The position numbers were made by a program, and so were the translations under genes. The notes beneath the pieces are model-generated. The model did not search any database. It saw only the letters and a program-made list of their open reading frames with translations, and was not told the DNA's origin. Source: Ginglymostoma cirratum (Eukaryota). Taken from it: DNA of 64,000 nucleotides. The stretch covers positions 5,729,016-5,793,015 of the forward strand of contig JAHRHZ010000067.1 in NCBI GenBank assembly GCA_024137785.1, read 5' to 3'. Shown here piece by piece: positions 14,001-59,789 of the stretch (position 1 is the first letter of the stretch; each line of letters starts with the position of its first letter).

Positions 14001-17000
14001 ATTGATTTTTCAGTAGCACCTTTTTAAATTGTTGGCAGTTGACTTTTGTTTAAGCCTAGCACCATAAATACACAGTGTACTTTTGCAAGTGTCCCTTTTT
14101 AAATTTCCACTTTAAGTTTAAAGTGTTTTGTTCTGTATGGTCAATAGACTTATTACTCTTTTATGCATGCACCGAAAATATTGCTAAATAATAGTTGCAC
14201 TGATCTGCTCGCTTGCCTGCCTGGTGATTTTCCTACGTATACAGCTCATAGGTGAGGGAATCTATTTTTCACTGTTTTTATTTCTTGCTTCTCATCCCCC
14301 TTCTTCTAAAGGCACAAATGTGCTGAGGGTCCACAGTCACTTCATCTTTGTGTTTGCATTCCAAGCTTGGGCTTGTTATTTGGTTCTGAGCTGCATTGCG
14401 ACAAAGTCCAATCCTATCCGCATATTTAGGGGGAGATGGTGCAGTGGTAATGTCACTGGACTGGTAATCCAGAGATACAACCTAATGCTGTGGTGATTAC
14501 TGATTGAAAACCCATCGTGGCAGCTGGTGGAATCTAAATCTTAGTAATGGTGAATGATTGTCATAAAAACTCATCTGGCAGTCTGCTGTTCTTATGTGGG
14601 CTGGCTCATGTGAGAATCAGACTGACAGCGATGTGATGACTCTTAACTACCCTCACACAAATGGCCAAGCAAACCACTCAGTACAAGGGCAGTTGGGGAT
14701 AGGCAACAAATTCTGACCTTGCCAACAATGACCATTTCCTATTAAATACTTTATAGGGTACACATTTTCCAGCAGGGACACTGGGTAATGATCAGAAGTT
14801 GGAACTGTGTATTATGCACTATTTTCTGCAATAATCTAACATGAATAGAGGAGGAATCAGAAGCTGATTCTGCATCTGAATGAGGCCCCATTTACCTGTT
14901 CGTTTTGTTAAATAAACTGCTGCCTTGGCAGACTCAAGGCTGATCTTGAGATTTAATTGAATCACTGCTCCTGACAATTATTTAAGAACCAGTGCTGCTC
15001 CATTAATGAACAAAGTGGGCTGGGATTGAAATGTTTTCCTTTTAATGTAGATATTTTTCAAACTTTTAGTGGCAGGCTTAAACTCTCCCTATCTACCCAG
15101 TTTAATTCACACTGCAATTCTGCTGTGTGTTGTAGTCCTGGTATTAAAGGAGAAGTTTCAGTAAAGTGTATTTCTGTTTCTTCTGTTTTAGAATTGGAGA
15201 TCCAGGATATTGTCCCGATAAATGTAGAGAGTCGGGAAGATAGCTGGGCTGTGAAGATACTTAATCTTCTCTCAATGATCCAGTTCTTGCAAGCAGGTAT
15301 GTTAAAGTATTGTCAGGTATTTACCTTAAAAGTAGGAAACTTCTTTCATAATTTAAAAAAACTCAAACATATTTTATACTACAAAGTATCTTACTGTGGC
15401 CTCTGCTTTGGTAGCACTTTCCACAGTATCATCCACTTTGCCTAACCTGCTGGATAGGATTTTTTAAAAGATTGCCGCTTCAGAATATGACCAGCATCAT
15501 AATGGTGAGATGTACCACCTATGCAAACAACAGCTGAAAACTGCCTAGCTGAAAGATAATTAAGTTTGAGTAATTGTCAACATAGGACTCAAATTTCTAA
15601 CCGTCTGCATGAGTAGTGAATGTCACCGTGGCTGTCCATTCAACTGTACTGTAACAGAGCGATTTGGTTGTGTATTGAATAGGAGAGCGTGTCCGAGAGC
15701 TGCCAGTGTTTGGAGAGCTAGAGGGGATTTTTCTTGTTGGTGTTGTTGATGAGCTGTGCTATAATTCCAAAGGTGAACTGGAATTGTGTGAACTGAAAAC
15801 TCGTGGTCAGCGAACATATCCCAGTGCAGCCCAAAGGAAGAGTCATCTGTTTCAAGTGAGTGGGTGCAGTAATTTGGAAAGGATCTGTTTTCATGGCTCA
15901 CTTCAGTGGGTTATTTAAAACACCAACAATATCCTTTTGCATCATGCTTTACACCATTTGGAACAACAATGACTGGTAATTGGATTGGTAAAGCATACAT
16001 CCTAATTATGTTTTGTACCACTGTTTAGTAGGGTCATATCGACACAACACTAACTCTAACTTTACAGTTCAATATGTTCATGGAGTCTGTGCACATTAGT
16101 GCAATTTCAGAGTTGGGACTGTGGAGATACTTTCACGAACTGTCTCTTTGGCTTATTCGATAGCTGTCTCACCTATTGGTCAGAAAGTTTTAAGCCTCCC
16201 ATCAAGTCTCTAGTGAACAAACACGTCCAGTGCACTGTTGCTGGAGTTTAGGAGAAGTCAAATTTAAATATTATCTGCTCACATCAGTAGTTCAATTAGA
16301 CATGGAAAACATTGGGGTTCTCTTTCTTTTTTAAAAAAAAACATTCCTTAGATTTATTGCTGTCTTTGGTTCCATTTCCTTTCTTGCTCTGTGTTTAGCC
16401 AGTAGTTCTCAAGCTTTGTTGATGAAGGGCCAACTTTAAATATGTTAATAATTATGGCCATAATATTGTATGAGATTTCTCTTTCAAGTTGTGCATGTTG
16501 TGGTTTAGAAATGTCTTTAGGTAAGTGAATGTACCTTCCTTTTTAAAAACATTTATTTTTAAAGACTGCCTTTCGTGAGCAAGCTGAACTCGCCCAATGC
16601 CCACCAGCAGCCTTGGTGACAGCAAGTCTACCCGATGAACTCTGAAGCTGCTCCATATGCTCTTGTGCTTCGAGATAACCAGCGCCTCTGCGTATCATTT
16701 GTGGCCTCTACACTTCACTCCACCCTCCCACCTTACAACAGACCCATCTCTGGCTGCTGCCCATTTGTTCACTTACTGATTTCCCCTGGAAAGGAGTCTG
16801 TAGTCTCCAGCTTGAGAACCATGGTTAGATTAATCTCTGGTAATTCTCAATGCCCTTTGAAAGTATTTTCACTTATTAATATTCTTAACTCAAGATAATG
16901 ATCAGAACAACTATTAATTATTTAACTACTGAAAAATCTTGGAGGCGATTAGATTTTCTGAAGTGTCAAGACTTTAGACCTGATATTTATTTTGATTAAT

Positions 17001-18445
17001 TCTCTTCTAAAAAATCATATTCTAAAACTATAAAATTCTGTATTATAGAATTTATGGAAAATGTTGTTATATCCTTAAAAACAGTAAAGATAATATTTCC
17101 ATACAATTTTTGTCTTGTAATCTCTAGCTACAAAATCTTGGTACTCCACTGTGCCTCTCTGTGATTCAGTACAGTTTGATAAAGCAGCAGCCAGGATTTA
17201 CAGGGTTTCATGTAGATTGATTAGTTGCTGGCTGGACTTAAATGACTTGATACGTAAATTCAACAATAATTGGCTGTTACATGTGTCTACACTGTGCATA
17301 TATTGGCAACATGAAGCTTGGTTTCTCTCCAACTACAGAAATCAATTGGAAAAGCTCTTATTTCTATCATGTGCTGGTTTTTAATCCTGTAATTATAGTT
17401 ACCGAATGTGATAGCAGCCTGATTCAAAATAAGGCTTCATTTAGTCTCGCTGATCAATATTCCTTCTTCAGCCAATTTCTCATTAATACTTGTGGGGCAC
17501 TGCTGCTGCACTGTCGCTGCTGTGGTTCCACACAGAACAGTTTTAGCACTCTTAAAAAGGGAAGCTCGTCAATGAGAAAACCCACTGTTTAAATGCCAGT
17601 ATTTATTTCCCGGTGTTGTTGTGTTTTGTGATCACATTCGGTAAATTAAACATGATGTCACTACATTCCAGTTGGGGAGCAGTTATAAATTACTGTCATG
17701 TCATTTGTGCATGGATTATAAAGCTTTTAAAAAAAAAAAAAAAAATACGCTGCACAACCAGGGAACTAATGAAGACCTCTGGTGTGTGAAATGAATAGCA
17801 AAGGTATGTTGAAGTGAAATTAGGAACTGCGCATACTAGAGATCTGAAACAAAAAGACAGGAAATTTGTGAAGAAACTCCATTCTGGTAGCATGTGTGGA
17901 GATGTTAAGTTTATACTTGAGTGATGTTGGCTCTGTGTATTGATCATTTCATAAAACTAAATCCTTTTTATTACCAGGTTAGCATATACAAACTTCTCTT
18001 CGAGGGTATGATGAAAGGCCAACTGAACAAGGAAACCATCACTGATCACCTTCACTTACGGAGAGAGCAGCCGTTTAGTTCGGAGATTCTGATGCATGCT
18101 CAAAAGGTGGGATTTTCCACAAACACGTTTGGTGACCTTCTGGATTTAATGTTGCTAAACCTGACGTATGCAGAGATCCCCAATATTGACACCATGAAGA
18201 TAGAATACTGTTACCAAGCGGATGCCTCTCTAATTGGAACAGAAGTGGTGTACTTTGACGAGGCGTGGGTTAAAAGTGAGTTAAAGCATTATTGCTCTTT
18301 CTGGAAGGGCCAGAGGGAGGCCAAGGGTGTGGATATTGAGGAGGCATGGAAATGTCAGTCTTGTGACTTTGCAGACATTTGTGAGTGGAGACAAAGTAAA
18401 GCTGAAGAAGCTACGCTAAAGAATCGAGCAAATCAAAGCAAATGA
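4881..18445 (+). CDS. EXO5: Exonuclease V (Fe-S cluster ssDNA exonuclease), join(4881..5031,11743..11839,13040..13296,15192..15296,15683..15855,17978..18445), 416 aa
   Basis: Translation matches vertebrate EXO5 motifs: [41 protein letters not shown]...[39 protein letters not shown] (4 Fe-S Cys). All introns are GT-AG, phases agree, total 1251 nt. Exons 1-2 are less certain than exons 3-6. Confidence 0.93.
5085..6555. mobile_element. Nested CR1 fragments: minus copy (5085-5305 and 6073-6555) split by a plus copy (5318-5985) and a PLE scrap
   Basis: ORF 5321-5902 is the CR1 ORF2 C-terminus; the flanks are contiguous reverse-strand CR1 3' sequence. Confidence 0.85.
7102..7734. mobile_element. 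Palindromic PLE-derived element spanning a 400-N gap
   Basis: Inverted ~90-bp arms; TSD GTTGAAAACT(G/A)GT at 7089-7101 and 7735-7747. Confidence 0.8.
11135..11570 (+). mobile_element. CR1 LINE 3' end
   Basis: Near-identical reverse complement of 41029-41460. Confidence 0.9.
11743..11839 (+). CDS. EXO5: EXO5 coding exon 2 (low-complexity linker)
   Basis: ctcctAG acceptor and AG|GTAATT donor; open frame that bridges phase 1 to phase 2 exactly as exons 1 and 3 require. Confidence 0.7.
12100..12795 (+). mobile_element. Degenerate CR1 fragment
   Basis: [21 protein letters not shown]. Confidence 0.75.
13040..13296 (+). CDS. EXO5: EXO5 coding exon 3
   Basis: Pyrimidine tract plus CAG acceptor; encodes [16 protein letters not shown] and HLAR; donor G|GTAACT. 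Confidence 0.92.
15192..15296 (+). CDS. EXO5: EXO5 coding exon 4
   Basis: ttttAG acceptor; encodes [27 protein letters not shown]; donor G|GTATGT. Confidence 0.93.
15683..15855 (+). CDS. EXO5: EXO5 coding exon 5 (catalytic PD-(D/E)xK core)
   Basis: Encodes [23 protein letters not shown]...ELKTR; donor CAA|GTGAGT. Confidence 0.93.
17978..18445 (+). CDS. EXO5: EXO5 coding exon 6 (C-terminal Fe-S cysteines, stop)
   Basis: ttaccAG acceptor; encodes [10 protein letters not shown]...[14 protein letters not shown], then TGA. Confidence 0.95.
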   Translation, partial: VSIYKLLFEGMMKGQLNKETITDHLHLRREQPFSSEILMHAQKVGFSTNTFGDLLDLMLLNLTYAEIPNIDTMKIEYCYQADASLIGTEVVYFDEAWVKSELKHYCSFWKGQREAKGVDIEEAWKCQSCDFADICEWRQSKAEEATLKNRANQSK

Positions 18446-25679: not shown

Positions 25680-25985
25680 TAAAAACCGGAAGAACTGCAG
25701 ATGCTGTAAATCAGGAACAAAAANNNNNNNNNNNNNNNNNNNNNNNNNNNNNNNNNNNNNNNNNNNNNNNNNNNNNNNNNNNNNNNNNNNNNNNNNNNNN
25801 NNNNNNNNNNNNNNNNNNNNNNNAAGCTCAGCAGGTCTGGCAGCATCTGTGAAGAAAAGATCAGAGTTAATGTTTTGGGTCCGGTGACTGAGGAAGGGTC
25901 ACTGGATTCAAAACATTAACTCTGATCTTTTCTTCACAGATGCTGCCAGACCTGCTGAGCTTTTCGTGCAACTTTGTTTTTATTG
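25680..25985. mobile_element. Palindromic PLE-derived element containing a 100-N gap
   Basis: Inverted arms AAGCTCAGCAGGTCTGGCAGCATCTGTGAAGAAAAGATCAGAGTTAATGTTTTG and its reverse complement. Confidence 0.75.
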
Positions 25986-27944: not shown

Positions 27945-28519
27945 CCAACATTCCATTAGCCTGCTAGATTACTTGCTGCACCTAGTTTTGTGTTTCGTGC
28001 ACAATCCCGAATACCCTTTATGGTGCAGCTTTCAGTAGCTTGTCTTCATATAAATAATACTCTTTTTGTTTTCCTTTCTAAAATGAACACCTTGGCATTT
28101 TCCCACATTATGCTCCAGAAAATGCTGGAAATATCCAGTGGGTCAAAGGTTACTGGCATTGTCTTCAGTGTGTATCTGACTCAAATGTTTCAGACTCCCC
28201 TTTTCTCCCTTAAAGCTCCCTCCCTTCCATTCCACCCCTACCCTTGACTAAAGCTGTCCAGCAAATATCCACTGTACTTCCCCAGCCTTACCGCAGCTCC
28301 CATTCGTAAAGGGCTGCTGTGTGAGTGTATTTGAAAATCGTGAATGCATACTAAATACTGTTCCCAGTAATTTGTTTTTACAAACGCAAATTAAAGGTGG
28401 AATAGCACATCAGAAACACACAGCGCCCCGCCTCCCGCTGAAACCTCGCAACGCTCCGTTCTTATTGCGAAACTGATGTCCCTTCAAACTGCAATTACCA
28501 GAAACGTCCTGGTTAAATC

Positions 28520-28531
28520 GAAACCGAAACT
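28520..28531 (+). promoter_or_regulatory. ISRE / IRF element GAAACCGAAACT
   Basis: Perfect GAAANNGAAACT just upstream of the tapasin-like ATG; GC box GCCCCGCCTCC at 28425-28435. Confidence 0.75.
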
Positions 28532-28559
28532 GTCGCTGCGCCTGGGCCGACAGTGCACA

Positions 28560-28605
28560 ATGTATCTGGAGATGTTCCTGTTGCATTTTTGGATTCTCGG
28601 AGCCG
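28560..28605 (+). CDS. TAPBPL: Tapasin-like exon 1 (signal peptide MYLEMFLLHFWILGA)
   Basis: ATG in a small CpG-rich patch; hydrophobic leader; donor G|GTAAGA. Confidence 0.85.
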
Positions 28606-31600
28606 GTAAGAAAGTCGAACGCTTCCAGGATGAAAGAGGCAGATCGTGTTTTAAATTTTGACGTTTGTCATTTGACGATTGGAAAGCGGCGTTTCGAATG
28701 AAACTAAGTGCTTGTGGGATCCTTAAAGTGCAAGACCAGATTAAAATGGCAGTGCAGCTGCTTATCTTTCGGTTCCTGGTGATATCTGCAAATGGTCTTG
28801 AATATAATGAACACATCAATACGCGATGAACGTCATTGGCTCACTATGGCAATGACGGGAGAATAAAATGGCTTTTGGGACCCTTCCCCTTCTTTTCCAG
28901 TTGGGAGAAGATTAGAAGCTCATGCATAATAAGGACCGAGGGTTGGGTGAAACATCTTTCTGACTGCCATTGTGATTGTGAAGATTTCCTCTTTGGATCA
29001 ATTTAGCTCAGTATACTTGGACTATTCCCCCTGAACTACAAGGTACTGCCACCACAATGCAGTGCTGAAGGAGCAAGTCCTTCAGGGTGGGAGTATGGTG
29101 ATAGGTGAGTGCAGGTAGGGAGTGGTCAGTGAGGTGGGCGAAGTGGATAGGTGGGAAAGAAGATGGACAGGTTGTGTCAGGACAAGGAGGTCGGGATGAG
29201 AGGGAGGGTTGGTCATGGAATGAGGCTGGGGGGTGGTGGGGAGATTTTGAAACTGGTAAAGTCCACGTTTAGGCCTTTGGGTTGTAGGCTCCCCAGGCGG
29301 AATATGAGGTGCTGCTCCTCCACTTTCTGGGTGGTGCCATTGTGACACAGGAGAAGGCCCAGGATGGACATGTCACCCAGGGAATGGGAGGGAGAGTTGA
29401 CCGGAAGGTGTTGTTGTTTGTTGCGAACAGAGCGCAGGTGCTGTACAAAGCGGTCTCTGAGCCTCCACTTGGCCTCACCGATGTAGAGGAGGCCACATCA
29501 GAAGCAGCGGATGCAATAAACCACATTGATGGATGTGCAGGTGAACCTCAGTCTGATGTGAAAGGTTTGTTTGGTGCCTTGAATGAAGGTAAAGGGGGAG
29601 GAGTAGGGGCAGGTGTAGCACTTCCTGCGGTTGCAGGGAAAGGTGCCGGGGGTGGTGGTGCTAGTGGGGGAGTTATGGAGAGAGCAGTCCCTACGAAAGG
29701 CAGATGGGGGTGGGGACGGAAATATATCTTTGGTTGTGGGGTTGGATTGTAGGTGGTGGAAGTGGCGGAGAATGATACATTGGATATGGAGGTTAGTGGG
29801 GTGATATGTGAGGACAAGGGGGATTCTGTCTTTGTTTTTGTTGGGGGGAGGGAATGAGAGGACAGAGGTGCGGGAAACATAACAGATGTGGTCGAGAGCA
29901 TTTTTGACCACTGAAGAGGAGAAGTTGAGGTCTTTGAAATAAGATGACATCTGAGATGTTTGGGAGTGGAACGCCCCACCTTGGGAGCAGATGCGGCAAA
30001 TGCGGAGGAATTGGGAATAGGGGATTGCATTCTTGCAGGAAGGTGGGTGAGAGGAGGTGCAGTCTAGGTAGCTGTGGGAGTCGGTGGGCTTGAAATAGAC
30101 GACGGTTTTGAGGCAGTCACCAGAGATGGAGACAGAGAGGTCCAGGAAGGAGAGGGAGGTATCAGAGATGGTCCAGGTGAACTTGAGGTTGGGGTGAAAG
30201 GTGTTAGTAAAGTTGATGAACTGTTCAAGCTCCTCATGGGAGCACGAGGCAGCGCTGATACAGTCATCGATGTATTGGAGGAAGAGGTGGGGGATGGGGC
30301 CAGTGTAGATGCGGAAGAGGGACTGTTCCACGTATCCTACAAAGAAGCAGGCATAGCTTGGGCCCATGCCGGTACCCATGACCACCCGCTTTGTCTGTAG
30401 GAAGTGGGAGTTCCCTATCTTCCCCAGCCACACCCCTCCTCTCTCTATTTATTTCTGAGCTCCCTTCCCCCTCCTGCTTTTCTGAAGAAGGGTCCTAACC
30501 CGAAACGTCAACTTTCCTCTCTTGCTGCCTGGCCTGCTGTGTTCCTCAGTGTGTGTTATCGCTGAAGGAGTAAGGTTTGGTAGCCATAGTCTTACCAGAC
30601 CATAGGGCTGCTGTCTACTGGAGAGAGAGAGAGAGAGATGGAGAAAGAGAGAGATAACTGGTGGTGGTTTAACCTCAGCTGAGTGGTAGTGGTAGTCCTT
30701 CATAGTAATCTAAGCTGTTGCAGGAATTGAACCCACGCTAGTGGTATCTCTCTGCAGCACAACTGGCCATAAAACCAACTGAGCTCAATGCTGTTGTAAT
30801 GCTTTTCATGACTGATGGAATTGTAAACTCCTTATGACAGACAGCTAGATGTTAAAATGTCGCTACCTCTAGGCAATTAGAGATGGGCAATAAATGCTGG
30901 TCTAACCAATGACGTCTACATCCCATGAACAAAATAAAGTAAAGAAGGGGGTTGGCTAGTCAGTTGGTTGAGTGCAGAGTGACACCAACGATGTGGGTTC
31001 AGTTCCTACGTCAGCTGAGGTCAATGTGAGAGTCCTGCCTTCTCAGCCTTAGCCCCTCACCTGAGGTGTGGTGACCCTCAGGTTAAACTACCCATCAAAC
31101 ATGTCACTGTCTAATGGACAAGCAGCCCTATGATCATCTGGAACCATGGTGACTTCACCTTGTCTTCATTTTAAAGAAGAACAGAGAGTTCTTTGTTATC
31201 TGTGGAAGTGTCCTGGCCACTGAGGGAGTGCAACTGATTCCAGGGATGGCACGATTGACAGTGGGGGGAGATTGGACTGGTTAGGACTATGCTCACTGGA
31301 GTTTAGAAGAATGAAGGGGAGATCTGCTAGAAACCTATAAAATTTCAACAGGACTAGACAGGGTAAATGCAGTAAGGATGTTCCTTATGACCAGGGAGTC
31401 AATAGCCGGAGATCTCAGTACAAGGATACAGGGTAGATCATTTAGGATCAAGATGACGAGAAATTCCTTCACCCTGGGAGTGGTGAGCCTGTGGAATTGT
31501 CTGCCTCAGAAAGCAGTTGAGGACAAAAATATTTGATCTTTTCAAGAAGGAGGTAGACATAGTTCTTGGGGACATAAAAGAGTACGTGGAGAACAGTGTA

Positions 31601-34600
31601 CTGAGATAACAAGGTGTAGAGCTGGATGAACACAGCAGGCCAAGCAACATCAGAGGAGCAGGAAAGCTGACGTTTCGGGTCTAGACCCTTCTTCAGAAAT
31701 GGGGGAGGGGAAGGGGTGTCTGAAATAAATAGGGAGAAAGGGGGAGTTGGATAGAAGATGGATAAAGGAGAACAGTGTACCGAGTTGGATCAGAAACAGA
31801 AGTTGGTGGAAAAGCTCAGCAGGTCTGGCAGCATCTGTGAAGAGGAAGAGCCACCGGACCCAAAACGTTAACTCTGATCTTTTTTCTTCACAGATGCTGC
31901 AGATCTGCTGAGCTTTTCCAGCAACTTCTGTTTTTGTTCCTGATTTACAGCATGTGCAGTTCTTTCGGTTTTTATGTACTAAGCTGGATGATCAGCTATG
32001 ATCATACTGAATGGCAATGCAGGCTCCCAGGGCTCAATGGCCAAATCCTGCTCCTATTTTCTATGTTTCTATGTGTCTTATCCCTCAGCAAACACATCAG
32101 CCAATATCACCCATTCATGTAATTCATTTCTGTGAAGTGTATGTGGCCTGTGTTTGGCTCTGTGTTCAATCAACTTACATTTATATGATGGCTAACTTAT
32201 GACCAACTTACTCAGAGAAAGGTAGATCAAAGGCACTCCTTCAGTTGTTTACGGAAATCTAAGGGTTTTATTTAGGAGCTTTCTGTGAGCTTGTGGACTG
32301 ATTGAGTGGACAGAGTGAAGTGCAGTCTGGTTGAAAGCCTTTGAAACATACAACTGGATCCATATCATGGAGACCTATTCATACTTAACTTCATATTAGG
32401 GCTGAGGCTAGTTTAACTGCAGTCAGTTCAATAACATAACATCATTGTGCATGTATACTTGCATTTAAGACTACTTTAATTTCAGGAGTCACAATCTAAT
32501 CCATGTAAAATGAATTAGCTTCAGAATATAACCCACTAATTGAAAACTTTAGGAGCAGAACAAAATCTTAGCTAATATTCTCAAGTGCTCCAATCTTTTT
32601 GTAAGACGGAAAATTGACCTTGTTAAAAATGGACTAAAATGTTCAATTTTTAATCTACTACATGTTTTTGAACTTTAAACTCATGGGCCACTGTGACATC
32701 ATATGATGGGAATCAATGTTAAAAGATTTGTTTTTTCATTGAGGTGCCTGGGTAATTTGTGGAGTGTTGGTATGCATTTGGTATTAAAAGTTTTGTATTT
32801 AGATGCTTTTATGTATTTTTAAGGAATTGTGCAGGCGCAGAATGGACGCAGGATTCCAGGCAGAAAGTTGGACTGCGCGTTTGTAGAACAAAAGCAAAAT
32901 GAACAGGCTGAAGTGTTTGGGCCAATCATCATCAAAAGGAAGGCAATCCTACTGTTTGGTGATATTGTTACAAATGAAGAGGCCATTATTTTTAAAGTTC
33001 AAGGTAAAGATGAAACATATCTTCAAATTAATTCTCTCAGGCAAGCCCCCTCTGCTGTACATAGAGTAAAACAACATAAAAGTGCTTTAATGCTCCCAAA
33101 GTTACTTGTAATAAAGTCCTGCATTGTTTATTTTGTTAGAGTAGCAGATCTCCCATGGCATTGCTCATAATAATTCAGACAATCCACTGATATCTAAGAA
33201 GTAATAAATGCTGTAAAACACAAGAGAGGTAATTTGTAACACCCATCAATCCATTGGAAAATGAATAAATTAAGCACGATTCTGGTTTTATATCCAGCCT
33301 GATTATTTTTTATTGAAGTCACTGGTGAGTAATATTGTCCAGAGATTTAAACAGATGTTCCATATGATCCCTTGGTTTCCTAGGCAGCAAGTTCAGTCAA
33401 AAACATCCTCAAAACGAATTATTCTCCAGATAAACGTAAGTATGCATCTCTTTAATTGTACAACACTAATTGAATCCAGGGTTTGAAGCTGAGCAAGGAA
33501 ACTCGTAGGCTGATTCATGGCCAGCTCAAGGCAACACTTTAAAAGGACCAGAACCGCATCAGCCCTGGTCTTTATTAAATGGTTGAACAGGCTTGGAGGA
33601 TCAGATGGCCACCTTCTGTTCCTAAATTTTATGTTTCCGTGTCCTGCAGCACAGTTTCAGTAAATGACTTCAACCTAGACTTCCTAGATCAAAGGCAGGG
33701 ACAGTACCACTAATGATCAAGTTTGTAGTTCATTTTCAATTAAACCGATTTTTCTAATCAACTGTTCAGAGTTGTTTTTACACATCTCTGGAGCAGGTAG
33801 GATTTGAATCCAGGGACACAACCACTGCACCACAAGAGGGTCCCCTTATGTGCATTCAAGTGAAGCCTCAATGAATGCCATTCACCTGCATATAATTAAA
33901 CATAATTGACAAAAAATTAATCTGGGTATTAGTGGATACTATTTACCTGGCCTTTTGATCGTAATCCAATAGAATATATAATTGATGCAATCATTTAAGT
34001 CTCATATCAACCATAGGTTATGTGACTTGCCATGTCACAGTACACAGCGTGAAAGAATGAACAATCTTGCACACCCCATTTCAATTTGGTGCAAATGGAG
34101 CTTAACATAGTGAAGCAATTCATTTACTGAGACTTACCAATAAGGTGATATTATAGGGGTATATCTGGGCAGATTGCTGTGCTTAAGTTGGCTTCTGCAT
34201 TTCTTACATTACTACAGGGATTACTTGTCAAATGTAAGTCCTTGGCTGAAAAACTCTTGGAGATGTCTTGAGCTTGTAAAAGGTGCTAAACAAATGCATT
34301 TCTTTCTGTTTCATGAAGGACAAGGTGTTAACAAGAATCCATTGCTGGAAGAAAACAATTCTGCGCAACTTATGAAATTAAAACATGACAGGGCTAGCTT
34401 ACTCATTTAAGAGTGACTTGTTTCAATCAAAAGTTAGGCTGCATTTTCAATGTTTTGTTTGAAAACATCTTTTGGGACAGACAAGTCTACAGGTTCTTCA
34501 GCTCCCTGAAGTCAGCCTATTAAATATATATATTCAAGATGTAAATGCAATTTTTCAGAAAAATTTATAGGATCTTACAATGTGGGAGGAACAGCAAACT

Positions 34601-37600
34601 GTGCTTCATTAATATTGAGACCTCTCTCTATGTGACTAATTTCCATCATTTCTAATAATTTGCTGTTACTTATTATGTGAATCAATTTTTTTTTTTTTTA
34701 ACAGAGTCTTCATTAGATGTTTTCCAGTATGTGGACGAGAAACTGGACACATTGGGATGTGAAATTAATAGGTATTCTACTCTCGGCATCCATATGCCCT
34801 GGCCGCATGAGGGTAAGGAGGCTATTGAAGACATATGGTTCACAGTGACTTTAAAGCATTTAAGTAGCAGGTTCACTGTAACCAGCTTCATGAGGAAGAT
34901 AGAAGAGCCCGATAGCCAGAAAGTTGAGAAAAGTGAAGCAAAAACTGATGGTGAAGATTTATCCATTGGTGACACTGACACTCTGTTTGTTCAAGGTAAT
35001 GTTTTGATGTTGACCAGCTGAGTGCATGTTCAGAGTGAGTGCTGCAAGAATGTGTGTGAGATGTGCGCAATATTTGTTTTGCATAAGCATATTAAACTCT
35101 ATCAACTCCAACGATAATACAAGAGATGAAACATCCAAAGAAATATAAACAACTTACGACTGCATATTTAAGATGCTGAAATTCAGAGAACATGCAATTT
35201 CAAATAGTTTTGGCTGAGTTATTAGTAGTGATCTAACTGTCAGAAAAATGGACGGTCATGACTGTTTGTTTTTATTTGTTAGTGACCTATATTGTACACA
35301 CCAGGACCCCATTGATCAGAACTAAACTGAAGCAAGACCTCGTTCTGGACTGCGGCTACAAAATTGATCACAGTACAGACTTTAACGTTGACTGGCGGTA
35401 TCAGCACAAAGGGAGCAAGAAGAAATTGTTCTCCTACAATGGGCGACATCAGCGGATTGAATTCATTGAGAAAGGAGTTGAAGTATTCATGGACCAGATC
35501 AAGAAGGGAAATGCTTCACTCCGTTTAAGAAACATTGGTGTTCAAGATGAGGGATCCTACATGTGTTCTGTATATGTGCCTCCACTCTTTGGAACACACA
35601 CCATTGAGGTCGAGATTATGGGTAAGATGTTGAATCCAGTGAATTAATCAACATGGAAAGTTAACAGATTAGTGGAAATGTATTCATTCATTTGGTAACA
35701 AAACAGCGCAGAAGTCAGTAGAAGGTTGAAAGGATCATTTTCACCTTACTGCCTCCTAAGTATAGCTGAGGTTGTTGCTCCAGTAGTAGTGCCTGGATTA
35801 ATTATTCCAACCTACAGCAAGGTGCGTTTTAACATCATGCAGAAATGTAGAGTGCAAGTTGTTCAGATTTGTACCAGCGCACCAAAAAAAAAACCTTCAC
35901 CCTGGTTATCTTCTAATCAACCTGCTCAAGGGTGTTGTGACCTCCAGAGCAGATGGGAATTGAACCTAGATAACAAGGTGTGGGGCTGGATGAACACAGC
36001 AGGCCAAGCAGCATCATAGGAGCAGGAAAGCTTGACGTTTCGGGCCTAGACCCTTATCTAGTTGAGAGGTAGCATCACGAGAGCCTTGCCGTGACTATTA
36101 GCGATCAGAGTGATTGCAATCCAGCTCAGCTATGCATCAGGTTGTTTCTATTTACTGAAGAGGGACTCAGTGGCTTGCTCCTGGTCTTATGTTCTCCTCA
36201 TTAGAAGAGGAGTCATACCAGACACACAGTGGCAACTCTGCTCCTCTCTTCACAGATGCTGAGTTTCTCCAGCATTCTCTGTGTTTGGATATGGGCCTGG
36301 ATTGTGATTCTGTGGTAGAGACAAGTGAGACAAATATAGCAATGTAAACTTAAGGAAGCAGCATGGGATTGCCATTGTCCCTGTTCCGTAAACTGAGCAA
36401 ATGCCAAACCTTCACAGATGGATGTTGTAGTCTGCGCCCTGCTGCTATCATCATAATTTTGCCTCGAATGCAAACTGTTTCAGCAGCTTTTTGTTACAGT
36501 GTGTTAACTGTGTAATGTGATTGTACAGAAAATATTACTATCAAAAGCTGTTGAAACTACTGATTTTTAAAAGAAATTTTCTTGGTTACTTGTCATGTTC
36601 TCAATGAAAAGCTCTCTTATTCTAATCTGGTTCCAATTAAATGGATTGAAAGCTGAAAATCCCAAGTGTCAAAAAGCACCTGTGAATCTTGAATGTGTAT
36701 TCAGTTGATGTGAAGTGTTGCAATACAGCGTGTTTGCTTATGTTATAGAGTCGCCCGTTGTCTCTGTGAACCCTGATTCGGTTTCCCTTATCGAAGGGGA
36801 TGAACAGAAGCTGGTCTGTGATGCAGGGCGGTATTATCCACTTGATGTAGCGGTGAAGTGGCTGCGGCAAAGGGACGAGGGGCACATGCTGCCCGTTTAC
36901 ATGACGAATGTTGTCTTCTCCCCCCACAAGCAGAACATGGATGGCACCTACAACATGACCAGTTATTTCAGGTTCACAGCATCCCTCCAGGACAATGGTG
37001 TTACTTATGTATGTCGAGTTGAGCACGCCAGCTTAGTGAAACCAATCAAACAGTACGTCCAAGTGAATGTAGAAGGTAAGCAATGAACAGAGTCCTATGG
37101 TACTTATAATTGTTTGTGGTAAAACGTTCAATATGCAATAAAATTTGACGCCAGAGCTGCTCATGAATTTTATTTAACCTCTCATATTTATATTGAAGCT
37201 GCACTGGTGTAGTGAAAACCTCCTATGAGTTCACCTATCATGGGTTTTGAAACCAATCTGGTCCATTCATTTAAACTGATTAGCCTTCCCAAAGGTCCAA
37301 TCTTTGTGTCAGTTTTCTAGCAGTCATACACACCTGTTTTCTCAAAATCTGCTTCAGTCAGGAGAAAGGAGCTAAGTGAAACGAGGAATTCTGTACACAT
37401 TGACACATTTCTCTCCAGTGGAATATAGATGGCCATGGTAGTTACCCTCCATAATTTCCAAGCTCTTACCAAGCTTTTACAATACTTTGTTTCTTATGCA
37501 GATATTGTGGAGAAAGTTAAACTGATTGTAAGAAAAGTTCTTGCAATTACTTTGTTACTTTTTGTTGTACATTCAGTATATCATCACCCCATAGTTTATG

Positions 37601-40600
37601 CCCCATTTGAATGAGCAACAATTCCTTTAGCCTGCTTAGGTTTGGCATTATAGGCTCCATATTCTAAAATGGCTATTGTTAGTGTCACCATCCTCTGACA
37701 GGGAAGGATAGGTTAGTCTTTGACCTTTTTGCTCACAACGGATCACTCTGGCTTTGCCAAGCAAGCTGGGCTCCTAAGAACAATTCACAGATGGCAAGAA
37801 CTGCAGATGCTGGAGTCAGAGACAACACTGTGGAACACAGCAGGCCAGGCAGCATCAGAAGAGCAGGAACGTTAATGTTATAGATCATGTTTTGTTTTCT
37901 TTTAATGTGGCTTTCTTTCATTGAAACACAATGCTACAGATTTGGTACTAACAATAAAACAGAAGTTTATTGCACAGAAGGCATAAAGTTAAAATAAGAC
38001 AAACAAAGCTATCTAAATTTAACACGGTTTGAAAAAAAATTAAAACACACAGTGAAGCATAATCCCAGCCACTAGCCAAGGCCATCACTTGACAAGCTCC
38101 AGAGAAATTCCTTCCTTATCAAATCTGTAGGTTTGACTTAACTGCGTCTTCTCAGTTCTGGTCCCATGAGCTGTGAAGCTTTTTCAGTTGAAGAAGCAAA
38201 CCGTCAAGAGCTTAGATTTCCTCAGTATTTAAATAATCTGCAGTGTTATAACCAAACACTGCTGGTCTGTTAGTTTCACAGACTACGCTTTTCACTGAGG
38301 CAACTTATTTCCTTAACTGCTCTGAACAGTCTCCCACTGAAGATGAAGATATACCTGTTTCTCACCCCAGTCAGGTTCTCCAATGATCTCCCCACAAGCT
38401 TTTGAACTAAATTTAAAAACTTACTCATCCTAGCTTCTGCTAAGCTAATGACTTAATGTTTTCTCTCTCTGGTCACAATCCCCCACAATACAAACACGCT
38501 TGCATTAACACTCGAGAAGGCAAATACTGGTTTAAAATTGTGGTTCTGGAAAGACTGACCTAGTTAATTTCTAAAACCCTTCACAAAAATAGACAAACAC
38601 GTGGCAGAGATAGTAAGAACTGCAGACGCTGGAGTCAGAGAAAACACTGCGTAGAGCTGGAGGAACACAGCAGGCCAGGCAGCATCAAAGGAGCAGGAAA
38701 GCTGATGTTTCAGGTCAGGACCCTTCTTCAGACCCATTTCTGAAGAAGCGTCCCAATCCAAAACATCAGCTTTCCTGCTCCTTTGATGCTGCCTGGCCTG
38801 CTGTGTTCCTCCACCTCCACACTGTAAACACATGTGGTACTAGTTCAAGATCCAAACTCTCAAAAAAAGGTTAGTGTAGTTAAATTACACACTTTTCATC
38901 ACAACACTGTTACCACTGTGCATTGAATGTTGCTGGTGGCTAATGGCTTGCCAGTTAAGCAGACTGCTTTGTCCTGAATGGTGTTAGGTTTTGTTCGCGT
39001 TGTAGCTCCAAGTGGAGTGTGTTCCATCATATTCCTGACTATTACCTCATAGATTGACAAACTTTGAGGAGTAAGGATGTCAGTCAGTCTAAGCAGAATT
39101 CCATTTCTAGTCAATGGAAATACCCAGAATGTTAATAATAAGAGATAAATGCCATTGAATGTTGGGTAGCAGGCTAGATTTTATTTTCTTAGAGATGTTC
39201 ATTGTCTGGCAGTTGTGTGGCACAAATGTATTTTGCTACTTATCAGATAAGCCTGATTGTTGTCCGGGCCTTGCCACATATGGGCAAGAATTAATTATCT
39301 GAGGAGTTGTAAATTGTGCAGAGCATCATGTGATCATAAGTAATCTTGAAATTACATGCTTACTATTTGTTGTACATTCAGTATATCATTATTCCGTAGT
39401 TCATTCCCTATCTGCATCAACAATGACTCCTTTAGCCTACTTAATTTTGGCACTATGGGCTCTACATTCTAACATGGCTATTGCCAATGTCACCACGAGA
39501 CCGTTTGACTGGGAAGGATAGGTCAGTCAAACCATCAATATTACCACTCTGGCCTTATGATGGAGAGAAGATTATTGATGAAGCAGATGAAGATGATTGG
39601 GTCAAGAATACTATCGTGAGGAACTCCAACAATAATGTCCCTGGGCTAAGATTATTGACCTCTAATGACGACAACTACCTTCCTTTGTACTAGACATGAC
39701 TCTAACCAGCAGAGAGTTTTGCTCTGATTCCCACTAACTTCAGTTTTGCTGAGGCTCCTGGATTCCATTCTCAATGTATTACTGCCTTGATGCCAATGGC
39801 AGTCACAGTCATTTTCACTCATGGGTTCAGCTTTTTGGTACTTGTTTGAACCAAGGCTGTCATGAGGTCAAGATCTATACTGAGGACATTGCAAATGGAG
39901 CAGTGGAATTTCTCGCCATATGTATTAACTTGATTTTTAAACAATTGTTGGAAATTTCAACTAGAAAGATATATAACAAAACTTAAAACCATCAAAAGTT
40001 GGGATGAAATCTGGGGACTGGACATGATGTTGAATAAATAAAGGCTGCACAGTGTGTATAATGATAGCAAGGTCAGAGGGGTTGTACAGGGTGGGGATGA
40101 TGTGTTGATTATTTTAGGATTTTTTTTCTTTGGCTTCTTGCTTTGCGTCAACATGAATTACCTTGGAAGTGGACATCCACTTGTCAGTGATTGAACAGTT
40201 TTGAAATTGAGTAATTAAATTAAGTTCTACCAATAAACGTATTGAGTGAAAAATGAAAGATCTGTTTTCTGGTATTGGTTTGAAGGATAAATGTTGGCTA
40301 AGATACCCTGCTCTTCAAATTCATGACCTGGAGTAGCAATCTCAAAATACTGACACTGATTAAATGTTTCTTTAATTCCACAGCGCAATCTCAGACACTT
40401 CAATTTATCTTACTGTCAATTGTGATCGTCTTTATCTGTGCTGTTGTGATCATGCTGCTGGTTTACTTGAAAAAAGGTTAGTATTCTGCTATTACAGATG
40501 CTGTGCTGTTAGTCAGCATTCTCTGATTCAGACCGTCAACTTTCACTATAATCACCTTCTGTCTCGACTAATTTTCATTTGGTAGTGCAGAACTGAGCTT

Positions 40601-43600
40601 TGCTGAAAAAAGACACGTTTTGACAATGCTTTTCATCTTATACCCATCAGGACATTTCAAAAGAATATTAAGAAAGGAGAAAACCAGCATTTATATAGCA
40701 TGAGAGGAATGTGTTGATTGGTTGGCAATTGGATTCTGATTGGTAAAGGTGTTGCCATGAAGTATGCACCTATGTATGTAACACTGATTGACAGTTAACA
40801 GCCAGGCTTTGTTTACATTTTTTAAACTTGGCAGGTAGGCTCTGATTAGCCAGGGCGTTGCCCTCCGAATTGAACCAGCAAATGGCTGTTGTAACAGGTG
40901 TAGCCCATGTACATGTTATTTCTATCTGCAAAGATAAGGGCTTTGTGCATTAATGCAACTTCCAGTAGGTGACAACACCACTATCCATAAGAGGACACTT
41001 AATCAACTTCTCCTCTCATGCAATATAAGAACATAAGAACTAGGAGCAGGAGTAGGCCATCTGGCCCCTCGAGCCTGCCCCACCATTTAATAAGATCATG
41101 GCTGATCTTTGAGACTCAGCTCCACTTACCTGCCCACTCACCATAACCCTTAATTCCTTTACCTTTCAAAAATTTATCTAGCCTTGCCTTAAAAACATTC
41201 AGCGAGGTAGCTTCAACCACTTCACTGGGCAGGGAATTCCACAGATTCACAACCCTTTGGGTGAAGAAGTTCCTCCCGACCTCAGTCCTACATCTGCTTC
41301 CCTTTATTTTGAGGCGATGCCTTCTAGTCCTAGTTTCACCTGCTAGCGGGAACAACCTCCCTGCCTCCACCTTATCTATTCCCTTCATAATCTTACATCT
41401 TTCTATAAGATCTCCTTTCATTCTTCTGAATTCCAATGAGTATAATCCCAGCCTACTCAGTCTCTCCTCGTAATCCAACCCTCTCAACTCTGGAATCAAC
41501 TGAGTGAATCTCCTCTGCACCCCCTCCAGTGCTAGTATATCTCTTCTCAAGTAAGGAGACCAAAACTGCACACAGTACTCCAGGCGTGGCCTCACCAGGA
41601 CCCTATACAGCTGCAGCATAGCCTCCCTGTTTTTAAACTCCATCCCTCGAGCAATGGCAGACAAAATTCCATTTGCCTTTTTAATCACCTGCTGCACCTG
41701 CAATCCCACCTTCAGCGATTCATGCATAAGGACACCCAAGTCCCTTTGCACAGCAGCGTGCTGCAATTTTTTATCATATAAAACATAGTCCATTTTGCTG
41801 TTATTCCTACCAAAATGGATGACCTCACACTTATCAACATTGCACTCCATCTGCCAGACCTTTGCCCACTCGCTCAGACTATCTATATCCCTCTGCCGAC
41901 TTTCAGTGTCTTCTGCACACTTTGCTCTACCACTCACCTTAGTGTTATTTGCAAATTTTGACACACCACACTTAGTCCCCAACTCCAAATCATCTGTGTA
42001 AATTGTAAACAATTGCGGTCCCAACACTGATCCCTGAGGGACACCACTAGCCACTGACCGCCAGCCAGAAAAACACCCACTTACTCTTTGCTTGCTACTG
42101 GTCAACCAATCCTCTATCCATGCCAATACCTTACCTGTAATACCATGTAACTTTATCTTATGTAGCAGCCTTTGGTGTGGCACCTTGTCAAATGCCTTCT
42201 GGAAATCCAGATACACAACATATAGATGTTGATTTTTTTTTTTTTGTTCTTCCCTTGAAGTACCCTTAAGTCTTCCCAATCTCTTAAACATTCAATCTGT
42301 TCACAAAATGATGTGGTTGTTGAGTTTTTAACTGCTTTCTGTCCTTTCCTTTGCAGTTGCAGAAAAAAACAAGGTAAGAGCAATATAATTTGAAATTTTA
42401 CTAAAGCCATAAAGTTTTGCAAAGAAATTGTGCAAGAAAAGGATAATTTTAGAAGATCAATTGATATATTCACAATGCAGTTGTTTTTTTTTTTAATTCC
42501 CCTGACTATGAGAAAGAGATTAAACAGTTTGGGCCTAAACCTGTGCGGTTTTTAAAAATGAGAGATGGCCCAAAGAGGCTTTGCTGAGGGGCTGATGCTG
42601 AGAGGATGTTTCTCCTCCTGCCAGAATCTAGAACTAAGAGGCCCAGTTTCAAAATAAGGGCTGCCTGATTTAAGGTGGAGGCGAGGAGACATTTCCTCTC
42701 TCTGAGGCTCATTCACATTTGGAAGTCACTACCCTATAAGGAATGGTCAGTGAAGGTACTTAAGGCTGGGTTAAGTGACGGAGGTTGCAAATGGCAAGGA
42801 GCTATCAAAGGAGCCTTGGTGAGTTGCTGCAGTGAGTCTTTAGGTAGTATTCACATTTGCCACTGACCGTCAATGGTGGAGGAAGTAAATGTTGAAGATG
42901 GGGAGCCAACCAAGCGGGCTCTTTGTCTTGGATGATGCCAAGCTTCTTGAGGGTTGATGGAACTGCAGCCGCCTTGGCCAGTGGAAAATGTTCCATTACT
43001 GACTCATACCTTGCAGACAGTGGGCAGGCTTCAGTGAATCAGGAATTGAGTTATTGTCACAAACGTCCCAGCCTCTGACCTGCTGTTATAGCTGCAGTAT
43101 TTATATGATTAGTCCGGTTCAGTTTGTGGATAGTGGAGGATTCTGTGTTTGTGATACCCTGTAACGTCAAGGGGAGATGGTTACATTCTCTCTTGTTGGA
43201 GATGGTCATTGCCAGGCATTTGGGTGGCATGAAAATTATTTGCCACTTATCAGCCCAAGCCTGAGTGTTGTCCATGTGTTGCTGCATTTGTACATGGACT
43301 GCCTCCGTAGCCAAGGAGTCTTGAATAGCACTGAACATTGTTAATAATTGTACCTCTGAGGTTCACTTGGCAAACGTCCCCTCATCCCTAATCCCTGCTC
43401 CCCCTGTGGCCCCAGAATGTGGCATTTTTCCCCCTTAAGTCCTCAGCTGCTTTTCGCACCTGCCAGGAAGGCAGGCAGTCAGGCCAGTGGTGAATGAGGC
43501 CCTGAGCTGACTGGTCATGAACCACAAGGGTCTTATTCAGTGCTAAGCTGAGTAAGTGCCTACTGTAATTGCTAAAAAGGGGGCAGATATCTCTGCACAC

Positions 43601-43934
43601 ATACCTGTATGTCTTACCACCTGCATAGAGTGAATAGTCACACCTTTTGAATTTGGAATGGTCAAATTTTTCCACTGGGTTGAGGTCGGAGTAGATAGCG
43701 GAGATGTTGGGCTGGAGATTGATGATGCAACTAATGGTCTGTGGAGTTGGAAGTTTGGATTAAAAATTTAAACCTATTAATCAAAGTCAATGTGATTCAA
43801 TGAAGGGCTTTTTTTAAATTCCCTTATCTTTCAACTATTCTGAATAGCCCTTAAACTTAACATGTTGCTATAATATGGGAGTGTATTTTCTAATGTTCTT
43901 CCTTTTATCTCTTCAACAGAAAAAGCCGTATTGA
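28560..43934 (+). CDS. TAPBPL: Tapasin-related / tapasin-like type I membrane protein, join(28560..28605,32824..33003,34705..34995,35283..35621,36749..37075,40384..40476,42357..42373,43920..43934), 435 aa
   Basis: Signal peptide; N-domain LDCAFVE / CEINRY / WFTVT; IgV domain DC..DWRYQHKG..GNASL.L..V.DEGSYMCSV; IgC1 domain LVC...YYPLDV..W..HKQNMDGTY..YVCRVEHASL; TM segment; KKPY stop. All introns GT-AG, total 1308 nt. Family assignment is secure; the exact paralog is not. Confidence 0.88.
29078..30560 (-). mobile_element. Penelope-like retroelement, 5'-truncated with inverted body (RT + GIY-YIG, disrupted)
   Basis: Minus frame encodes MGTGMGPSYA, YIDD, FLDL and VVYCIRCF*CGLLYIGE (GIY-YIG); plus-strand 3' tail at ~30411-30560; TSD GCTGAAGGAG(C/T)AAG. 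Confidence 0.9.
30482..30509 (+). ncRNA. Minimal hammerhead ribozyme core in PLE terminus
   Basis: CUGAAGA-A-GGGU-ccua-ACCC-GAAA-C-GUC; helix I pairing is weak. Confidence 0.6.
31602..31766 (-). mobile_element. PLE terminal fragment with hammerhead core (31669-31696, minus)
   Basis: Reverse complement reads CUGAAGA-A-GGGUC-ua-GACCC-GAAA-C-GUC; TSD GGAGAACAGTGTAC. Confidence 0.75.
31791..31975. mobile_element. Palindromic PLE-derived element
   Basis: Same family as the 20194 and 25680 copies; degenerate 14-bp TSD. Confidence 0.7.
32824..33003 (+). CDS. TAPBPL: Tapasin-like exon 2 (N-domain)
   Basis: LDCAFVEQ resembles tapasin IECWFVED; donor G|GTAAAG. Confidence 0.88.
34705..34995 (+). CDS. 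TAPBPL: Tapasin-like exon 3 (N-domain)
   Basis: Poly-T plus ACAG acceptor; CEINRY and WFTVTL motifs; donor G|GTAATG. Confidence 0.9.
35283..35621 (+). CDS. TAPBPL: Tapasin-like exon 4 (IgV)
   Basis: VHTRTP, LDC, WRYQHKG, GNASL and DEGSYMC motifs; donor G|GTAAGA. Confidence 0.93.
36749..37075 (+). CDS. TAPBPL: Tapasin-like exon 5 (IgC1)
   Basis: LVC..YYPLDV..W and YVCRVEHASL motifs; donor G|GTAAGC. Confidence 0.93.
38607..38824. mobile_element. Palindromic PLE-derived element
   Basis: Inverted arms GGAGGAACACAGCAGGCCAGGCAGCATCAAAGGAGCAGGAAAGCTGATGTTT and its reverse complement. Confidence 0.75.
40384..40476 (+). CDS. TAPBPL: Tapasin-like exon 6 (transmembrane)
   Basis: ccacAG acceptor; encodes FILLSIVIVFICAVVIMLLVYLKK; donor G|GTTAGT. 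Confidence 0.88.
41029..42222 (-). mobile_element. CR1 LINE 3' fragment, antisense in tapasin-like intron 6
   Basis: Long open RT frame DFQKAFDKV..GVPQGSVLGP..FANN..LVRPRLEYC; (TTCTTATG) tail. Confidence 0.95.
42357..42373 (+). CDS. TAPBPL: Tapasin-like exon 7 (17-nt micro-exon, VAEKNK)
   Basis: Strong pyrimidine tract plus TTGCAG acceptor; donor AAG|GTAAGA. Confidence 0.75.
43920..43934 (+). CDS. TAPBPL: Tapasin-like exon 8 (KKPY-stop)
   Basis: Long pyrimidine tract plus AACAG acceptor; yields a terminal KKxx motif. Confidence 0.75.
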   Translation, partial: KKPY

Positions 43935-45312
43935 GACTGTAAAAGAGGATTCAGCGTAAGTCCTGATAAGGAAAGAAAGTAAAAACTTCTATTTATTATG
44001 GACCTTTAGCATGTCCTTGGAGCATTTGCAAAAGCTTCACCAGCAATGAATTACTTTGAAGGACTGAGAGTACAAGCACATGCTGCAGGGAACACGTGCA
44101 TAGCACCATCCCACAGAGAGCAAGCAATTGGCTGATTCATCAGTTTTGATGTTGTTCTCAGAGGGAGGAATGTGGATCAAGGCACAGAATTAACTCTCTG
44201 CACTTGTTCAGGTAGATGCTTTACACCCACTTGAACGAGTGGAAGTGGAGGACAGAGCCGCCCTTTAATGCCTGATCTGAAAGATGGCCATCATAAATGA
44301 CCCATTACTTCCTCAGCACCCTGTTGATGTGTAATTGTCAGGTCCCAGATTGAAACTTAACCTACAAGGTTCTGACTCAGACCAGAAGTGCTCTGAACTG
44401 AGCCAAACTCATCGAGACGTGAATTTCACCTTTACCTATCTCCAAACTATCAGTCATTGATTAGTGACAGAACCCGCAGCGTACCTATGACAACGTAAGC
44501 TCTACCATAATGCTCACCTACCCCTGACCCAGGCAGCTGTAAATTCTGTTAAACTGAACAGGTTTGTGTTTAAAGTTGAAACTAAGTTTAGATCAGTTGT
44601 TTGTAGAACAGTCCATTCCAAATTGTTCTCTTCATCTTCCGTTCTGTTTGTTCTAAATTATGGAGAACGAGTAGGACATTCACTCGTGCTAAGGTGAATT
44701 TAGTTGCCAGCTCAATGCCAGACCTCTCGTTCTCCTGATGAGAAATATGAAAGCAAGCCAGCAGTGTAACTCCGGTCTACTGGCCAGAAAATTGGTGATT
44801 GGTTTTGTAACAATCCCATTTGGACACAAACTTTACAGAAACATGAAAAACAGATGCAGGAGTAGACCATTCGGCCCTTCGAGCCTACACCACCATCAGT
44901 ATGATGATGGCTGATCATGCAATTTCAGTATCCCATACCCCTTGATCCCTTGAGCCACAAGGGCCACGTCTGGCTCCCTCTTGATTATATCTAACAAACT
45001 AGCCACAACAGCTTTCTGTGGTCGAGAATTCCACAGAACTCTCAAAGTGAAGAAATTCTTCCTCATCTCAGTCCTGAAAGGCTTACCCCTTATTCTTAGA
45101 CCATGCCCCCTAGTTCTGGATTTGCCCAACATCAAGGAAATTCTTCCCGTATCTAGCCTGTCCAGTCCCAACAGGACCTTTTATATGTTTCTATGAGGTC
45201 TCTCCTCATTCTTTTAAATTCCGGTGAGTAAAAGCCAATTCGATCCAGTCTTTCTTTTTATGTCAGTCCTGCCATCCCGGGAATCAGTCTGGCGAACCTC
45301 CGCCAGACTCTC

Positions 45313-59786: not shown

Positions 59787-59789
59787 CTA

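Follow-up and report, generated by a model that had tools for sequence, protein, structure and literature searches.

The locus described here raises a twofold question: to which arm of the tapasin family does its gene belong, and what could the product do for class I molecules of the major histocompatibility complex (MHC)? The gene lies on the forward strand of contig JAHRHZ010000067.1 (assembly GCA_024137785.1) of the shark Ginglymostoma cirratum, within a stretch of 64,000 nucleotides (contig positions 5,729,016 to 5,793,015), which we call the window and by which coordinates are counted below unless said otherwise. An initial annotation of this DNA had suggested a protein that matches neither tapasin (TAPBP) nor TAPBPR and that probably belongs to a third, poorly studied lineage. 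According to our sequence analysis, the gene is the shark ortholog of TAPBPL. We propose, at a probability of roughly 0.6, that its product would be an interferon-induced chaperone, holding peptide-receptive MHC class I/beta2-microglobulin (beta2m) in the endoplasmic reticulum (ER) and the ER-Golgi intermediate compartment (ERGIC), outside the TAP complex; every functional step of this proposal is something that we infer.

As a lineage TAPBPL is already in print, and databases list its orthologs from many sharks already, although under names that are ambiguous. It was defined by Grimholt in 2018 as the third lineage of the tapasin family (PMC5824609), is named also in PMC9586880 and PMC9372762, is known from bony fish, amphibians, reptiles, birds and marsupials, and was reported lost in placental mammals (PMC5824609). 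The human gene symbol TAPBPL stands for TAPBPR, which is a source of confusion of names. PMC10534222 is about the tapasin of the chicken and mentions TAPBPL 0 times, and PMC13262535 uses the human symbol. Our literature search, with subscription papers and bioRxiv supplements outside its scope and blurred by that symbol, returned no paper on TAPBPL in cartilaginous fish and no biochemical test of the protein.

Lineage placement

Among 218 candidates a search with the IgV exon found 15 proteins, and those that bear a name, 13 in all, come without exception from cartilaginous fish; a profile made from 13 of the proteins of this search picked 34 among 4619 and reached coelacanth, bony fish, frogs, turtles and birds. 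TAPBP and TAPBPR sequences were drawn from the best 150 of a representative search. From 43 hand-chosen rows, mostly full-length family members, a tree of three clades was obtained, namely TAPBP (7 rows, support 99/97), TAPBPR (8 rows, 100/100) and TAPBPL (28 rows, 100/100). The Ginglymostoma protein falls among sharks within the last of them, at 100/100 with kiwi XP_013817376.1, which is the TAPBPL reference of Grimholt and the sole reference placed in the tree, others being compared by eye. An approximately unbiased (AU) test on 23 rows rejected the protein when forced into TAPBPR (p 8.1e-7) as well as into TAPBP (p 1.1e-4), and the guess of a third lineage is borne out. The claim that the features match neither tapasin nor TAPBPR is overstated, the set being the one published for TAPBPL: no transmembrane (TM) lysine, a glycan site in IgV and an ER motif, which in some members ends with KPY (PMC5824609).

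That we are dealing with an ordinary TAPBP or TAPBPR ortholog, which has simply diverged, has a next to negligible probability. Database names of the orthologs ('tapasin-related protein(-like)' or 'tapasin-like') and the best PDB sequence matches, which are to TAPBPR, would agree with it, but the tree and the AU rejection speak against it, barring a failure of the model, and TAPBPL occurs side by side with a true TAPBP in whale, zebra and elephant shark and with TAPBPR in Heptranchias. As these sharks have TAPBPL beside TAPBP or TAPBPR, all three lineages are present in cartilaginous fish. The TAPBPL and TAPBPR lineages are easily confused. Opossum XP_007485846.1, which is TAPBPL according to Grimholt, is listed in the phylogeny of a study of TAPBPR orthologs (PMC9956121).

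Searches of the Ginglymostoma assembly itself, with the tapasins of whale shark and zebra shark and one shark TAPBPR as queries (a part of these searches with a stricter first look), gave nothing better than the TAPBPL gene. One might read this as a replacement, in which TAPBPL has taken over from lost TAPBP and TAPBPR in this species, but we consider that very improbable. Searches of the assembly for BING4CT and Cnd1_N, which we take to be families of housekeeping neighbours of TAPBP and TAPBPR, were blank too, with no positive control, and loss of the two genes is therefore not accepted here. Two close relatives possess TAPBP, and in a catshark assembly TAPBP was 'not found' as well (supplement of PMC10751288). 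A gap of the assembly or of the search is more likely than loss.

A tree of the V+C1 part rooted on ten unnamed V-C1 proteins has TAPBPL as sister to TAPBP+TAPBPR (95/93); the other two roots are not rejected by the AU test (p 0.26 and 0.07), and sharks nest in this tree with coelacanth, contrary to the species tree. One may speculate, although we hold it to be rather unlikely, that TAPBPL was the first to branch off within the family and that its shark form is the least altered one, a stand-alone interferon-driven class I chaperone which would predate the TAP anchor of tapasin and the UGT1 cysteine of TAPBPR, and which the changed contact residue would direct to another class I client, perhaps a non-classical one.

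Gene model and transcripts

The open frame of 435 amino acids is built from eight GT-AG exons on the plus strand between 28560 and 43934, where the stop codon ends:

28560..28605, plus strand: exon 1, the ATG and most of the signal peptide, with the same N-terminus in shark orthologs
32824..33003, plus strand: exon 2, first half of the N-terminal domain, with Cys33 and a loop equivalent to the G24-R36 loop of TAPBPR (partly on the basis of the ortholog fold)
34705..34995, plus strand: exon 3, second half of the N-terminal domain, with Cys94, Glu87 (in the column of TAPBPR C94) and Val123 (aligned with the cysteine of bony-vertebrate TAPBPL)
35283..35621, plus strand: exon 4, IgV (Pfam V-set), with Cys196/267, D209, R211, Q213, the sequon at N249, and T277
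36749..37075, plus strand: exon 5, IgC1 (Pfam C1-set), with Cys309/374, K346-Q347-N348 at the place of TAPBPR R335/Q336/S337, and the sequon at N354
40384..40476, plus strand: exon 6, 93 nt in phase 1-1, an uncharged TM helix (about 402-423, by hydropathy) with Cys413; 0 differences in the contigs that cover it
42357..42373, plus strand: exon 7, a micro-exon of 17 nt in the cytosolic tail, whose letters stand between both sides of the 40476-43918 joint (runs X1, X3 and X15)
43920..43934, plus strand: coding part of exon 8, KKPY and the stop

Cleavage of the signal peptide was placed near residue 21 by eye. The model is colinear with the annotated zebra-shark protein (91.5% identity over 435/435 aa) and is 94% identical to the annotated whale-shark protein over 396 aa, values by which the source is a carpet shark. 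Reads mapped on 40300-44900 carry the splice of exons 6-7-8 in three of four sequencing runs, from three studies, and because of this joint the tail is as the initial annotation had it; alternative tails, with exon 7 skipped or an intron read through, were computed, and none is among the joints listed for these reads. Run X15 consists of polyA raw reads and gives 3 joint-spanning reads from 3 starts; X1 and X3 give contigs, whose status as RNA is a guess, and X16 gave no matches. Before exon 6 the contigs of X1 and X3 have 1166 and 1216 nt, compared with 1183 nt of the modelled coding sequence, and their lengths fit the junctions of exons 1-6 indirectly, read-level confirmation covering the exon 6-7-8 joints only.

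Some observations concern forms lacking the membrane helix. As exon 6 has 93 nt in phase 1-1, its skipping preserves the frame, and the elephant-shark database entry is 31 aa shorter and has no TM, which hints at a soluble isoform as judged from sequence. Reading through the end of exon 5 (37076-37086) soon meets a stop, within a few codons. Such an end, without TM, is that of the database protein of the whale shark, which is a secreted form or else an error of annotation.

The window holds open reading frames (ORFs) of reverse transcriptase of the long interspersed element type (labelled by eye) at 29498-30448 and 41116-42291, both on the minus strand, and at 50365-52696 and 58926-61195; two of them are inside introns of the gene, and reads from other repeat copies pile up on 40916-42300. 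Two runs of N (7194-7593 and 25724-25823) lie outside the gene.

Protein features

The ectodomain has six cysteines (33, 94, 196, 267, 309 and 374), none of them free, and a seventh, Cys413, absent from the initial annotation, sits within the TM; the latter spans about 402-423 and carries 0 charged residues by hydropathy. The motif DWRYQHKG occupies residues 209-216, the sequons are N249 (GNAS) and N354, and the C-terminus KKKPY fits both KKxx and KxKxx, the types of C-terminus that bind COPI. The six cysteines, the uncharged helix, DWRYQHKG, GNAS and the KKPY end were thus found where they had been described, and most of them are not diagnostic.

Residue counts here and below come from one alignment of 18 chondrichthyan and 44 bony-vertebrate TAPBPL, 12 TAPBP and 14 TAPBPR rows, in which the bony TAPBPL rows were grouped by similarity, include fragments and isoforms, and were placed in a tree only in part. 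WRYQ and the N249-type GNAS sequon are common to shark tapasin and shark TAPBPL and are family-wide, so they fail as distinguishing marks; the sequon is retained in 18/18 chondrichthyan TAPBPL rows. The same is true of the missing Cys95: human Cys95 aligns to Thr in zebra-shark tapasin, and since shark tapasin lacks this cysteine too, its absence is not diagnostic of TAPBPL. Among the sequences of PMC5824609 only human TAPBP keeps C95.

Other positions do separate the lineages. Cys stands in the C94 column of TAPBPR, which is required for the association of TAPBPR with UGT1 (PMC5441866), in 13/14 TAPBPR rows and in none of 62 TAPBPL rows, Glu87 being its counterpart here. Shark tapasin retains the TM Lys and the acidic pair of human tapasin, neither of which is present in the Ginglymostoma protein; in a separate set of 7 TAPBP rows, 5/7 have TM Lys or Arg and 7/7 an acidic residue at the TM start. 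A KPY end is found in 42 of the 62 TAPBPL rows (16/18 chondrichthyan, 26/44 bony) and in 0/26 TAPBP/TAPBPR rows. Grimholt's 'unique cysteine' of TAPBPL, downstream of the C95 position, is lacking in frog, turtle and opossum in the published alignment (PMC5824609), and in ours it is present in 24/44 bony and 0/18 chondrichthyan rows, with Val123 at the site. Being a variable feature, its absence does not exclude TAPBPL membership; it does mean that sharks have no free luminal cysteine in TAPBPL at all.

Fold and contact residues

An AlphaFold2 model was made for the whale-shark ortholog (94% identical) with 88 family sequences and reached a predicted local distance difference score (pLDDT) of 84. 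Its best structural matches are tapasin (Z 27.3, root mean square deviation 2.6 A over 325 aligned residues), TAPBPR (Z 24.0) and then B7-H6 (Z 16.9), a result which is not fully independent because the alignment included TAPBP and TAPBPR rows. With its tapasin N-terminal domain, IgV, IgC1 and TM the protein is a member of the tapasin family. By sequence, exon 3 alone has no tapasin match in PDB; the V+C1 part scores 96 bits with B7-H6 and the whole protein 100 bits with TAPBPR.

The contact residues known as the TN6 set are E205, R207, Q209 and Q272 (PMC9956121, PMC11745410), and R335 is a contact of the IgC domain of TAPBPR (PMC4008236). Alignment to 5WER puts D209, R211, Q213 and T277 at the TN6 sites, so that three of four are kept. 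Across the chondrichthyan TAPBPL rows the E205 site is D/E in 18/18, the R207 site is R in 18/18 and the Q209 site is Q in 17/18, and the R335 site, K346 here, is K/R in 16/18. The TN5 residue is I261. A prediction of the complex of the bamboo-shark TAPBPL ectodomain with bamboo-shark class I and the G. cirratum beta2m exon, run without alignments, scored 0.22 against a mark of 0.34.

Proposed function

From the features above a working cycle may be drawn. Interferon would raise TAPBPL through binding of interferon regulatory factors (IRF) to a promoter site, and COPI would retrieve the protein by its KKKPY end, making it cycle between the ER and ERGIC. By analogy with tapasin and TAPBPR, it may hold class I from below the alpha2-1 helix and also at alpha3/beta2m. 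In the absence of the TM Lys and acidic pair it would not dock on TAP, and with no free luminal cysteine it should form no disulfide to ERp57, while the residue that TAPBPR needs for UGT1 is lacking as well; the change of Gln to Thr at the Q272 site probably shifts the range of class I clients or the affinity for them. Retention in the ER and independence from TAP, ERp57 and UGT1, which had been put forward in the initial annotation, are overstated there, as both are drawn from missing residues.

For the first step the candidate element is a pattern match in a CpG-rich promoter:

28520..28531, plus strand: site of the interferon-stimulated response element (ISRE)/IRF-element type, GAAACCGAAACT, 40 bp before the ATG

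The observed/expected CpG ratio is 1.13 at 28401-28600 compared with 0.28 over the window, and the 200 bp before the ATG contain no match to the gamma-activated (GAS) or NF-kB sites. Three salmon TAPBPL genes rise by 1.5-3 log2 under IFN-gamma (PMC7573153). A second ISRE-type match, at 57523-57534, is near no gene found.

Several points weigh against our proposal. The Q272 site, which is Gln in 26/26 TAPBP/TAPBPR rows, has Gln in 0/18 chondrichthyan TAPBPL rows (Thr in 16/18) and in 3/44 bony ones, and it is the site at which the TN6 mutant carries Ser (PMC9956121); the remaining patch decays in bony vertebrates, where Arg is kept at the R207 site in 12/44 rows. N249 matches tapasin N233, whose glycan is linked to calreticulin (PMC5824609), and could recruit calreticulin and ERp57 with it, and therefore an indirect tie to ERp57 or to the TAP complex is possible. 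Expression is low in the sole recorded RNA run, X15, of which about a quarter contains 3 reads that span the joint. The pattern GAAANNGAAACT, after the ISRE consensus, with 2 matches in the window against 0.23 expected and 3 in 464 kb, was picked after the site had been seen. Finally, according to a review of 2022, nothing is known of the interaction of non-mammalian MHC with TAPBPL (PMC9372762), and Grimholt gives its function as unknown (PMC5824609).

That the invariant Gln is lost, and that the TN6 patch decays in tetrapods, could be taken to mean that TAPBPL has left class I peptide editing for another partner of the Ig type, or has become a decoy or brake on tapasin and TAPBPR, and the near equal scores of the V+C1 part with B7-H6 (96 bits) and of the whole protein with TAPBPR (100 bits) go in the same direction. 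We regard this as unlikely, considering that the N-terminal domain specific to tapasins is still present and is folded in the predicted model, that sharks retain the IgC contact besides three of the four TN6 sites, that a di-lysine tail speaks against a surface ligand, and that salmon TAPBPL responds to IFN-gamma (PMC7573153).

The glycan leads to another possibility, namely an alternative peptide-loading complex, where TAPBPL would be tied to TAP indirectly via its glycan, calreticulin(-like) and ERp57(-like) proteins. Grimholt has speculated on such complexes formed by duplicated CALR, ERp57 and TAPBP genes (PMC5824609), and the sequon conserved in all 18 chondrichthyan rows and a tail of the ER type as in tapasin would suit it. 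The TM Lys/acidic pair that shark tapasin keeps is nevertheless missing, no luminal cysteine is free, and the gene is off the MHC contig, which makes the arrangement quite unlikely in our view. An interferon-induced class I chaperone acting outside the TAP complex is thus the reading that we prefer.

Genomic neighbourhood

The order of genes at the locus is VPS53, FAM101 (refilin), EXO5, TAPBPL and RapGAP, as given by a Pfam scan that covered 280 ORFs out of 2535 non-repeat candidates from the window and its two flanks of 200 kb (464 kb in all). EXO5 had been named as the visible neighbour in place of MHC genes, and so it is:

12987..18445, plus strand: EXO5, upstream neighbour, at least four coding pieces, with Pfam Exo5 on four ORFs; the only EXO5 locus found in the assembly

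None of the 280 ORFs scanned over the 464 kb is an MHC gene, and the 28 MHC_I matches of the assembly fall on other contigs (25 on C2, 2 on C146 and 1 on C197, with 0 on C67, that of the gene), contigs being not chromosomes. Altogether the protein groups with neither TAPBP nor TAPBPR, its locus lies off the MHC contig and the reads show the expected tail, so the outcomes that would have spoken against the initial annotation did not appear. A beta2m exon lies on C2 too (242-511 of piece L015, minus strand), and it is identical over 90/90 aa to a shark beta2m chain in PDB (top match 9CH4, with 6LUO/6LUP at equal score).

An ORF between refilin and EXO5 (L040:8920-9402, minus strand), which has no Pfam match, resembles what we take to be LIAT1, and another (L046:1483-1878, minus strand) is presumably RAP1GAP2-like. 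The block of VPS53, refilin, EXO5, TAPBPL and RapGAP is, we assume, that of human 17p13.3 and of gar LG22. Together, VPS53, refilin, and the LIAT1-like and RAP1GAP2-like ORFs suggest the human 17p13.3 block and not the classical MHC paralogous region. Gar TAPBPL is located on LG22 (PMC5824609), and in the gene lists of the supplement to the paper on shark MHC and paralogous regions VPS53 and RAP1GAP2 have 0 mentions (PMC10751288).

EXO5 is split here by introns into at least four coding pieces. Since human EXO5 presumably has an intronless coding region and lies on chromosome 1, this would suggest that the human gene is a retrocopy which replaced the one at this locus.

Comparison with known systems

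With tapasin the shark protein shares the three-domain fold (Z 27), eight coding exons, the glycan site of IgV, a motif of the WRYQ type and a lysine-rich end, the ectodomain identity to zebra-shark tapasin being 36%. It differs by the lack of the TM Lys/acidic pair and of Cys95 (the latter as in shark tapasin), by Thr at the Gln contact and by its location off the MHC contig; TAPBP is listed among MHC genes in white shark and sawfish (PMC10751288). With TAPBPR it has in common the fold (Z 24), the long N-terminal loop, the lack of a TAP anchor, and exon 4 for IgV and exon 5 for IgC (PMC4008236), whereas Glu87 in place of C94, the di-lysine end and an ectodomain identity of 25-30% set it apart.

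With bony-vertebrate TAPBPL it shares the clade (100/100), the lack of a TM Lys, the glycan site, the KPY end, the six canonical cysteines and the absence of MHC genes seen nearby. The 'unique cysteine' (24/44 bony, 0/18 chondrichthyan) is different, and the E205/R207/Q209 patch is kept in sharks but decays in tetrapods, whose copies retain less of the patch that contacts class I.

In the quality control of MHC class I, TAPBPL makes up a third arm, which is known but blank as to function. The data of the defining paper are of bony vertebrates only, its supplement having the word 'shark' 0 times and cartilaginous fish not being sampled (PMC5824609), and the shark gene extends the open question of TAPBPL to the oldest jawed lineage. 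As the beta2m exon is identical to a structurally solved shark chain, reagents exist for a direct binding test. The presence of TAPBPL beside true TAPBP and true TAPBPR in cartilaginous fish places the three-way split of the family before the parting of sharks and bony vertebrates.

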